A DNA stretch of 50,953 nt from Escherichia phage Lys8385Vzw, in the sequence record MT225100; one strand, 5' to 3'. Positions 24,001 through 27,000 of this stretch are shown here, piece by piece. The position numbers were made by a program. Each line of letters opens with the position of its first letter. Within the stretch, counting starts at the first letter, position 1.

Positions 24001-27000
24001 CATCGTCATAACGCTTACTGATGCGTCGGGTTAATTCTTCCTTTAACGCATCCACAGCACCGTTTGGCATTTTAGTCATTTTTTCTTTGGCTATGCAGAT
24101 CTCAATACGCATAAAAGTCCCTCTATACTGTGTTTGTATACAGTATTATTTTTAACTGTATGGATAAACAGTGTCAAGAGGTCTTATTTCTGCTCCTTTG
24201 GAGCTCTTCAAAACGATTATGTAAAGATTTCGGATACAGTTCGGTATATACCTGCCATAGCACGTTTAATGAACGATGCCCTGTAACCTGAGCGACTTCC
24301 TCAATACTAAAACCAGCCTCAAATAAGCGACTTGCCCCTTCTCTACGCAAATCATGGTATCGCAGATCTTTAATACCTAATTTGCTTCTTACCCTCTGAA
24401 ATCCTGCAGTAACAGAAGTGCTGTTATATGGAAAAATGAATTCCGATTTTTTGGGCTGTCGTTGGACGATATCCCAGGCTTCCCCAAGCAAGGCTACTTT
24501 CATGTGGTTGCCTTCCTTTTTGCGTGGATCTTTCCTGTCTCTTACGAGTATAGATTTTTGTTCCTGGTCGAGATCTTCCCATCGTAACCGGCATACTTCT
24601 CCGATCCGCATACAGGACCACACAGAAAATTTGAGGATATCAACGAACGGAATTTTTGAGCATTTATGAGTAGATCGTTGTTGAAGGCCTTCAATGAGCA
24701 TGTCCAGTTCATCAGATGCTGGTCTACGATTACGACGGTTTGATTTACCAATCAAACCAAGTTTAAGTAGATATGGGCGAGCGCTTTTCGCTGGGTTTGA
24801 TGTGTAATTAATTCCATATACAGGTTTGGCAGCATCCAGAACACTGCCAAGATAACTAACATCGTGGCTAACTGTAGCTGGACCTGCACCAGCGTTGTTT
24901 CTTAGCCTGCAATGTTCAATTACGTCATTTTCTGTCAGTTCAGATAGTTTGATCGCGGAGATGTCACTATCCATAAGCAGTTCCAGCACATATCTTTTAG
25001 TACGGCCTGCTTTACCTCCGGCATTTGGGTCATTTAAATATTTGTGTAGTAAGTCACGGACTGTAAGTCCGTCAACTGCATTTGATGATGGAATGCCATA
25101 TAGATCTAATTCCATCACTTTCTGTGTGCCCCATGTTTTGGCATGAGCATGTTTAGGGAATGTTTTGCTTTCCCTGTAAGTGATAACACCTTTTTCTTTG
25201 ATAATCACATTACAGCGATAGCGTGGTGTGCCATCGGATTTTAGTCGTTTCTCTATGTTATAGTACGCCATTACACGACCTCGTTATTTCGGGTTCCCAT
25301 AAAACGTGGGAACCTGTGCGGGAACCTAACGCGAGAAAAATAGCCTGAAATGTTCAAAAATGCACGATAATCATGAAACACTAAAAATTAATCAAACCAG
25401 CGTGATGCCTGAAAAAACTGGTGTTTACTGGAATTCTCGGTTTAGCATTGCTCCCATGCTCGAATGCTCGATAGGATGTACCGTTTTTGAAAAACAACTA
25501 GTTATGCACTTTGTGGGAGCCTATTGGGAACCTGTTATTCTTAGAAAGCATCATTTGCTCATCACTTCAATTGACCATGGTTAAAGCCAGCTATAAACTT
25601 GACAAACGAGGTAACTGGTTGCTTAGGCCCAAGTGGGCACACCATAAGAAGCTCATGTTGGTGATGAAGCAACCCATGAAGTATCGAGAATAATTATAAA
25701 GTTCACTATCTTTGAGGTTTCTTATATGTTTTGCGAAGAAAAAGTAGCTCAAATGGCTGCATACCTACTTCTTAAGAGAGGTGGGCGCATGGCATATCTG
25801 AAATTGATGAAGCTGCTCTATCTGTCTAACCGCCAGTCGATTTTGAAGCATGGCAGGATGATCGGCGAAGATAGCCTTTACTCTATGAAATTTGGACCAG
25901 TCATGTCGAATACGCTGAACTTGATTCGCGGTAAGGCTGAAGGCATTGGTGACTACTGGTACAACTTGATAGAGACGAACGGGCATAATGTATCGTTGCG
26001 TTCAGATCCGAGGGAAATGGATGCAGACGAGGTCTTTGATGAATTGAGTCGTGCAGATATCCGGATTTTAGATGAAATCTATTCTCGGTATGGGCATATG
26101 AACCGATTTGATCTCGCAAATATGACGCATTTAGAAAGCGTTTGTCCAGAGTGGCACGATCCTGGCAATTCTCGTAAGCCTATAGACCTGAAAGAAATGC
26201 TGATCAGTGAGGGTAAAAGCGAGGATGAGGCTAATCGCATAATTGGCAAAATGGAAGAATCTCAGAAACTTAAGGAATTTTCTTTGCAATTATCATGACG
26301 GATTATCAGCCATACAGGAAAGGAACTGTGCTTGCCCCAACTGGACCATGCAATCATCTTCATGTGATTTGTAATGATCCTGTTTATTACCCCGTTAACG
26401 ATTGTTATTGTGTTTTAGTTGTTAATATTTCTAGTATCAAGGATGGTGTCCCCCACGATCCGTCTTGCGTCTTGAATTCTGGTGATCATCGCTTTATCAA
26501 GCATCCAAGTTATGTTGTTTACGCTGAAGCTATAATTTGGCGAGTGGATAACATGGTTAGAAAGCAGCGATCGGGTGAGATTTCTGTTCATGATGATATG
26601 CCAGAAGCTACATTCAATAGAATTCTGGACGGTTTTGATATCTCTGATGAAGTTACGCCAAAGAACCTTAAATTTAAAAATAAATATTGCGTATCATCTA
26701 TTGATGATGAGTAAACAACAGGAATTGTTTCGGTATAACTTCTGGAGTTTTCTATGGAAGATCAAAAAGCAACCAAGCCACAGGTTAAGTTCGACACAAT
26801 GAAAGCATTCGTAGGTATGGGTGCTGCTGTTGAAGTTCTGATGAAGGCTGCTCCTAATGCGTTCACTCACGCTACTGTCTCTGGTAAAGAGCAGCAGGGT
26901 AAGCTTCGTCGTCTCAAAGCAGCATGATCATAGCTGGTGCTTTTTGAAAACCCGCCTTCAGGCGGGTTTTTTCTTTAGTGATTTTCTTTGCCCTTCTGTT

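Follow-up and report, generated by a model that had tools for sequence, protein, structure and literature searches.

Putative integrase arm-type sites in the dusA-specific attP of Escherichia phage Lys8385Vzw

What do the GGGAACC motifs repeated upstream of the integrase gene of Escherichia phage Lys8385Vzw do? The sequence record of this phage (MT225100; 50,953 bp, referred to hereafter as the window) carries them in the interval 25285–25540, which sits between the starts of the leftward int gene and of a rightward gene for a Panacea-domain protein (25726–26298). The original prediction, made from the sequence alone, counted four to five copies upstream of int, one of them inverted, in what it took to be a control region for int and the Panacea gene. 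It proposed that they are either arm-type sites of the integrase (Int) or operators coordinating int with the divergent cargo module. We searched both strands of the window for YGGGAACCTR, allowing up to one mismatch, and found 11 sites, of which 5 lie within 245 bp (25290–25534). The predicted count was borne out, one of the five copies being inverted. Their consensus is (T/C)GGGA(A/G)CC(T/C)(G/A), and they are distributed as follows, as located by the motif search.

25290–25299, minus strand: putative int-proximal (P) arm repeat, inverted copy, TGGGAACCCG
25307–25316, plus strand: putative P arm repeat, first direct copy, TGGGAACCTG
25319–25328, plus strand: putative P arm repeat, second direct copy, CGGGAACCTA, 12 bp after the first
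25514–25523, plus strand: putative distal (P') arm repeat 1, TGGGAGCCTA, with one mismatch
25525–25534, plus strand: putative P' arm repeat 2, TGGGAACCTG, 11 bp after repeat 1

The exact word GGGAACCT occurs four times in the 50,953-bp window, as compared with 1.28 occurrences expected; three of the four fall in 25285–25540, and the fourth is solitary, at 45386. The fixed-interval probability of the clustering is 1.2e-9. In a scan-statistic simulation with 11 uniformly placed sites, 5 sites fell within 245 bp in 3 of 2,000,000 runs (p ~1.5e-6). A similar motif density throughout, which the original prediction had named as evidence against a function, was thus not seen within this window.

The junctions formed by this region in host genomes reveal what it is. 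When the int region was compared with phage records by megablast, several prophage-derived records stopped at ~25460–25463, between the two motif clusters. Comparison of the intergenic region with 5,426 complete Escherichia coli genomes gave 4,386 matching records. In the large majority of these only 25357–25466 matched, at ~82% identity, and the underlying feature was the 5' end of dusA. In lysogens, 25272–25466 matched at 95–99%, with int directly adjoining dusA (locus L001 reads int, then dusA); ~700 of the 4,386 records have this int–dusA junction at ≥90% identity. At the other prophage junction the match starts at 25457 or 25463 and runs rightward, beside a truncated 5' remnant of dusA. 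We then aligned four sequences: the phage attachment site (attP) in the window, the two prophage junctions (attL and attR), and the bacterial site (attB) of a K-12-type strain. Only ATGCTCGA (window 25456–25463) is common to all four; together with similar flanks, it makes up a semi-conserved direct repeat in dusA, at attL, attR and attB. The comparison of attL and attR junctions, put forward in the original prediction as a check, places this core between the clusters, with three copies to its left and two to its right. The main features of the site are listed below, with their basis.

24174–25271, minus strand: int, encoding a 365-aa tyrosine integrase of the dusA-specific family (open reading frame; Pfam PF00589 over residues 189–346)
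25272–25534, no strand: the whole attP, from the int start codon to the last putative arm repeat (attB/attL/attR comparison and similarity edge)
25360–25463, plus strand: dusA', a phage copy of the first ~34 dusA codons, which rebuilds the gene at attL after integration (~82% identity to native dusA)
25456–25463, plus strand: crossover core ATGCTCGA (attP/attB/attL/attR alignment)
25464–25471, plus strand: second tandem copy of the 8-bp core (this window only)

The open reading frame starting at 25360 begins MHDNHETLKINQTSVMPEKTGVYWNSRFSIAPML and is annotated as part of dusA in lysogens. Judged from the sequence, dusA' takes the place, in frame, of the host 5' end that integration displaces. 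The 74-aa open reading frame at 25360–25584 consists of the ~34 dusA codons followed by read-through over the core into the distal arm, and is no real gene product in the phage state.

Published data on a close relative agree with this mapping. Phage 1720a-02 integrates 100 bp into dusA, has a seven-base core and needs int for attP formation (PMC6328086). Its int region is 95.8% identical to that of the window, and the seven-base core described in that study (PMC6328086) lies in the same sequence as the window core. The primers used for quantitative PCR of the 1720a-02 attP (GGGTTCCCATAAAACGTGGG; the complement of GCCTATTGGGAACC...; PMC6328086) coincide with the GGGAACC motifs. A semi-conserved core repeat and a phage-borne dusA 5' end have likewise been described for dusA-associated integrases (PMC4482086, PMC6328086). 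Because the dusA junctions and the 1720a-02 attP data match, we conclude that the region is the attP of a dusA-specific tyrosine integrase, with the motif clusters as its two arms. It is not mainly a transcriptional control region, and in this respect the original prediction is superseded by the attB, attL and attR mapping. A tRNA-type attachment site was dismissed, as the window contains no tRNA genes, and so was an RNA element, as an Rfam scan of 23500–27500 gave no match.

The tandem duplication of the core spans 25456–25471 and reads ATGCTCGAATGCTCGA. A single core is present in the true phage genomes mEp460 and SKA5, at a tandem-prophage junction in strain GPEC1352 and in three extrachromosomal copies. 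The duplicated core was found in no full-length match among the 5,426 E. coli genomes and 50,697 phage records, and a search of viral contigs for the exact duplicated junction found none. When we reconstructed an attP by end-joining a prophage-derived record, a duplication of this kind appeared as well. Most probably, then, the window is a prophage that was closed in silico at its two att-bearing ends and rotated, the duplication being an artefact; the attP is ~255 bp long when the duplicated core is left out. The attP-like junction inside the E. coli GPEC1352 chromosome (L003) indicates tandem prophages at dusA. The three extrachromosomal sequences (NZ_CP081704.1, NZ_CP081794.1 and NZ_CP081716.1) are separate-replicon records of 37–44 kb in which attP is intact; they resemble circular phage genomes after excision.

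How much of this region is kept among close relatives? From the core through TGGGAACC, phages mEp460, 1720a-02 and PhiR40_1 have exactly the window sequence, as does an O157:H7 lysogen. Beyond it they diverge within 1–3 nt (after 25533) into four unrelated cargo regions. Distal repeat 1 (25514–25523) is invariant among five phages or lysogens with four different cargos. The last repeat marks the right edge of the conserved int–attP module, because similarity ends 1–3 nt after it. The repeats therefore lie inside a minimal conserved module, from 19 nt upstream of the int start codon to 1–3 nt before the similarity edge.

On the int side, 32 close haplotypes of the arm were compared column by column. 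The motif columns are variable at 4 of 30 positions, the spacers between the copies at 7 of 8 (Fisher p = 0.0002). One of the 10 columns varies in the first direct P copy (25307–25316) and none of the 10 in the second (25319–25328), and in one haplotype the same motif position is changed (A to G) in two copies. When the motif columns were compared with all noncoding columns, their lower variability was not significant (p = 0.40), because a neighbouring block of A-tracts is also nearly invariant.

Variable cargo begins at 25535 (25535–25725 and rightward), 1–3 nt past the last repeat. In the window and in O157:H7 this slot holds the Panacea-domain gene and a gene for a 139-aa partner; PhiR40_1 has a YafM-type antitoxin gene there, and mEp460 and 1720a-02 have unrelated sequences. 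Effector cargo is found at the other side, just past the DinI-like gene that neighbours int: the region 21790–23540 of the window contains a gene for a type III effector of the NleG family (22620–23540, minus strand) and an unannotated 201-aa open reading frame.

The same architecture was then sought across the integrase family. An alignment of Int homologues gave 80 loci, one genome per species, of which 78 were used (Int identity 53–99%); they span Enterobacterales, Vibrionales, Alteromonadales and others, and the window brought the set to 79 sequences. A tandem pair, defined as a match at ≥8 of 9 positions with 10–13 bp spacing, is present in the first 100 nt upstream of int in 66 of the 79 sequences, as compared with 27 of 444 windows within int coding sequence, 1 of 75 intervals 300–400 nt upstream and 45 of 1580 shuffles. 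Most pairs are G-rich and 11–12 bp apart, while some 10-bp pairs are A-tract units. Direct repeats of 8–10 bp, ~15–60 nt upstream of int and spaced 11–12 bp, occur in nearly all related loci. An inverted copy nearer int was detected in about one-third of them, at the same relative position where present. The motif differs by lineage, and the copies inside one element agree: GGGAACC is the class of a group comprising Escherichia, Kosakonia, Pluralibacter and Phytobacter, GGGGTGC is that of many Enterobacterales, and GGTGTAC, GGTGTCC, GGGATAC, GGGGCAC and GGGGTAC are found elsewhere.

Both arms could be inspected in nine divergent attPs, intact or reconstructed, namely that of the window and eight others taken from GenBank phage records; a scan of IMG/VR returned almost only near-identical relatives and was unhelpful for this purpose. 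Their motifs are as follows.

Lys8385Vzw (window): GGGAACC
Yersinia phage YeP2: GGGGTGC
Pseudoalteromonas phage C5a: GGGTGAC
Klebsiella phage Kp4882-1: GGGGTGC, with GGGGT(T/C)C on the distal arm
Marinobacter phage AS1: GGAGCAC
Ralstonia phage GP4: GTAGCAA
Pseudomonas phage H66: GTAGCAA
Burkholderia phage BcepIL02: GTAGCAA
Vibrio double-jelly-roll phage: CGTACT

Each of the nine carries its own 6- or 7-mer, exact or with one mismatch, on both arms. A distal 11-bp tandem pair lies 50–82 bp beyond the core start in seven of them; the distal arm of C5a has one direct copy and one inverted copy, and Kp4882-1 has the distal pair, with a core that could not be mapped. Most exact motif copies in each 2–7 kb locus are inside the attP, and in four of the nine elements all of them are. 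The integrase is the only gene common to dusA elements (Farrugia et al. 2015, PMC4482086). Because of this, a motif that is fixed in position but variable in sequence should have Int as its reader.

Do the motif classes follow the protein? In a partial Mantel test on 64 loci, motif distance was correlated with distance in Int residues 1–58 after controlling for residues 71–350 (r = 0.57, permutation p = 0.0005), and the reverse partial correlation was -0.19. This suggests that motif differences follow the N-terminal domain of Int and not the rest of the protein, although shared ancestry inflates the test and we take it as supporting evidence only.

The int–attP module, with its own arm motif, occurs in very different viruses (loci L175, L169 and L172–L174). 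L175 is Vibrio phage 10N.286.54.F4_PE001, a double-jelly-roll member of the Tectiliviricetes, and the other carriers are a P2-like phage and siphoviruses of Ralstonia, Pseudomonas and Burkholderia; the module moves horizontally between virus types. In Klebsiella phage Kp4882-1 (L170), whose Int homologue has 52% identity, tandem arm pairs are present on both sides with no dusA-like sequence between them, and this integrase may have a different target gene. In another locus (L019, IMGVR_UViG_2558860274_000005), int and the int-side arm are joined, ~190 nt upstream of int and after ...CCTATGC, to non-dusA DNA beside a yhhA-like gene. This junction shares ATGC..CTGG with the dusA core and looks like a secondary-site integration.

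The structure predicted for Int includes a separate N-terminal domain. An AlphaFold2 model built with 75 homologues has a predicted local distance difference test score (pLDDT) of 87. Its N-terminus is modelled with high confidence as three strands (residues 2–10, 16–26 and 29–38) and a helix (41–58). There follow a low-confidence linker (~59–70), a helical core-binding domain and the catalytic domain. The N-terminal fragment modelled in isolation takes the same fold. The known arm-binding domains of the lambda and Tn916 integrases have this topology, a three-stranded sheet against a helix, and so do AP2 domains. In Foldseek, the full model aligns with full-length lambda Int (1z1g, 5j0n) over ~365 columns, and also with Tn1549 Int. 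Comparisons aimed at the N-terminus itself gave little. The Pfam arm-binding families (Arm-DNA-bind_1/3/4) did not match the window Int even at permissive E-values, the best Arm-DNA-bind_4 match being a faint one (E 0.19) in the homologue P0038. A PDB profile search with Int matched the catalytic domain only. An hhalign comparison with the N-termini of lambda and Tn916 Int gave a probability of 3%, and Foldseek on the isolated N-terminal model returned nothing significant. Homology to the named arm-binding families could not be shown, and we claim no family assignment; our claim is that this domain, as modelled, would work like an arm-binding domain.

Distances of the repeats were counted from the core start with the duplicated 8 bp removed. 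On the int side the inverted copy is at ~-165 and the direct copies are at ~-149 and ~-137; on the distal side the direct copies are at ~+51 and ~+62. The three int-side copies are located 19–57 nt upstream of the int start codon, with the nearest 19 nt away. Candidates for DNA bending lie between repeats and core on either side.

25329–25359, no strand: block of phased A-tracts with a period of ~10 bp, reaching from the P-arm repeats to the dusA' start codon (conservation)
25492–25504, plus strand: site resembling that of integration host factor (IHF), located between core and distal repeats; AAACAACTAGTTA, which differs from WATCAANNNNTTR by one mismatch (weak evidence)

Only 1 of 31 columns of the A-tract block is variable among the close haplotypes, and A-tract units with a 10-bp period recur across distant relatives. 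The block may be an intrinsic bend, a site for an accessory protein or the promoter region of int and dusA'. The IHF-like site is found at the same relative place in YeP2 and Kp4882-1 and is absent from the other six attPs, which come from non-enterobacterial relatives.

Could the repeats serve another purpose? Two more features bear on this. A scan of 25150–25800 for sigma-70 promoters and terminators found one promoter-like site only, outside the motif block, and the consensus scan of this interval revealed no promoter on the int strand. The candidate excisionase gene lies further to the right.

25571–25599, plus strand: sigma-70-like site TTGACC, 17 nt, TAAACT, upstream of the Panacea gene and 37 nt past the last repeat
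26975–27283, minus strand: candidate recombination directionality factor (excisionase), PrtN-like (Pfam PF11112, E = 4e-23)

That the GGGAACC cluster arose by chance, or is a functionless relic of a sequence duplication, has next to no probability. Short G+C-rich words do recur randomly, and there is the extra exact copy at 45386, but the clustering (p ~1.5e-6), the conservation of the repeats while their spacers vary, and an architecture kept family-wide with both arms covarying are not expected of a relic; statistics and conservation exclude a chance origin, and the comparative data already contradict it. Operators coordinating int with the divergent Panacea module, the second proposal of the original prediction, would find some support in the layout. 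The three int-side copies occupy the 88-bp gap between the int and dusA' start codons, in which the int promoter must lie in a lysogen, and the one promoter-like site found for the Panacea gene lies 37–57 bp downstream of the distal pair. Once the phage has integrated, however, the whole prophage separates the clusters, which then stand at opposite prophage ends, so that there is no single control region. The cargo beside the distal pair differs among phages whose repeats are unchanged, and this architecture is shared by unrelated elements that are reported to have no gene in common but the integrase (PMC4482086). In addition, the motif follows the N-terminal domain of Int, and no promoter-like site overlaps either cluster. 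We therefore consider this proposal very improbable, and it did not survive the comparison. The repeats might instead be bound by the PrtN-like excisionase and not by Int. The direct pairs here are arranged like the binding sites of the lambda, P22 and L5 excisionases, which are tandem repeats, head to tail, at intervals of about one turn of the helix. PrtN-like genes accompany this integrase type in the window, in mEp460, where the RefSeq record annotates the homologue as excisionase, and in Ralstonia phage GP4, where the gene is again beside int. To our knowledge, however, known excisionase sites occupy one arm, whereas here the same motif is on both, at the outer ends of attP. Directionality factors also differ across the family while the architecture is constant: RdfN serves in Vibrio islands (PMC8409611), and a Vibrio phage of the family carries an annotated 'excisionase'. 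As the motif class again tracks the N-terminal domain of Int, we regard binding by the excisionase as improbable.

A further reading keeps the repeats as Int arm sites and adds a second role, in which the int-side copies would let Int repress its own promoter and possibly that of the rebuilt dusA. Such autorepression by Int has been proposed for satellite phage P4. In the prophage, attL separates int from the rest of the phage. This confines the int promoter to the stretch from 25272 to the core, where the three int-side copies are found. The conserved AAAAATA at 25336–25342 reads TATTTTT on the int strand and is -10-like; it would put the copies just downstream of the transcription start. On the other hand, the consensus scan detected nothing promoter-like on the int strand, this sequence has a poor -35 region, and AAAAATA is absent from marine relatives that keep the repeats. 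The dual role is plausible but, in our judgement, less likely than not.

These comparisons favour the first proposal of the original prediction. The core maps between the clusters, 1720a-02 integrates in dusA (PMC6328086), the architecture is family-wide and the motif covaries with the N-terminal domain of Int. On this comparative evidence, the five GGGAACC repeats are very probably arm-type binding sites in the attP of the dusA-specific tyrosine integrase. By analogy, we infer a mechanism that follows the lambda paradigm, in its binding and bending of DNA and in its order of events, with autoregulation of int as a possible addition. The small N-terminal domain of Int would bind the arm repeats, while the core-binding and catalytic domains would bind the dusA-like core (ATGCTCGA and its flanks). 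Bending of the DNA, by the phased A-tracts on one side and at the IHF-like site on the other, would let one Int molecule bridge arm and core. Recombination by this complex would join attP to the 5' part of dusA, with the crossover in ATGCTCGA, and the phage-borne dusA' would restore dusA after integration.

Like the lambda attP (P1, P2 and P'1–P'3), the window attP has a repeated non-core motif on both arms, with adjacent P' copies one helical turn apart. Its integrase is modelled with three domains, and a candidate bending site lies on the way from the core to the P' repeats. The lambda arm sites are at roughly -140/-115 and +55 to +80, comparable to -165/-149/-137 and +51/+62 here. There are also differences from lambda. 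The window attP is upstream of int and that of lambda downstream; int and the candidate excisionase gene of the window are at opposite prophage ends; the target is inside a protein-coding gene, which the phage repairs with a 5' end of its own; in sequence, no similarity between the N-terminal domain and its lambda counterpart can be detected; and copy number and orientation differ. A parallel in layout is offered by satellite phage P4 and mycobacteriophage L5, in which attP is immediately upstream of int and repeated putative Int sites flank the core. In both, the int-side sites overlap the int promoter region, suggesting autoregulation. The integrase lineages differ, however, the targets of P4 and L5 are tRNA genes, and the repeat sequences and numbers are not the same. 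With the Tn916 and Tn1549 integrases and AP2-type domains, the N-terminal domain has no significant sequence similarity and gave no Foldseek hit; the scores fall within the range of generic small folds.

A further comparison is with the dusA-associated integrases themselves (PMC4482086, PMC6328086, PMC8409611), which are of the same family and share the dusA 5' target, the core repeat and the phage-borne dusA 5' end. Those three papers define 21-bp core repeats and junctions, and arm sites are not mentioned in them. A search of open-access full texts for arm-type sites of dusA integrases found only two unrelated passages. Earlier publications cover the integrase family, its target and core repeat, and where attP lies in this type of phage; the concept of arm-type sites is textbook knowledge. 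What appears to be new is that the core of dusA integrases is flanked by arm repeats, with a conserved architecture, lineage-specific motifs and covariation with Int.

dusA is a common integration site, used by Shiga-toxin and other lambdoid prophages in E. coli and by genomic islands across Proteobacteria, and only core repeats have so far been described for it. Full definition of the attP gives exact prophage borders, and its sharp edge explains the variable cargo and defence slot that starts immediately past the last repeat. It also supports the design of integration vectors and the study of interference between co-resident dusA elements. It is also possible that Int, through the int-proximal copies, controls its own expression as well as that of the rebuilt host dusA. 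As the mechanism is the textbook one, the conceptual gain is modest. The comparative pattern suggests a testable orthogonality between specificity classes that share one target. We propose, tentatively and at somewhat less than even confidence, that the dusA-integrase family is split into at least eight arm-site classes (GGGAACC, GGGGTGC, GGTGTAC, GGTGTCC, GGGATAC, GGGGCAC, GGAGCAC and GTAGCAA, and others), which co-evolve with the N-terminal domain of Int while their target in the chromosome stays the same. Provided that there is no cross-reaction between classes, different elements could occupy dusA in tandem, or take over from each other there, without mutual excision. Nature would then have supplied, in this family, a collection of orthogonal integrase/attP pairs that all address a single conserved gene of bacteria.

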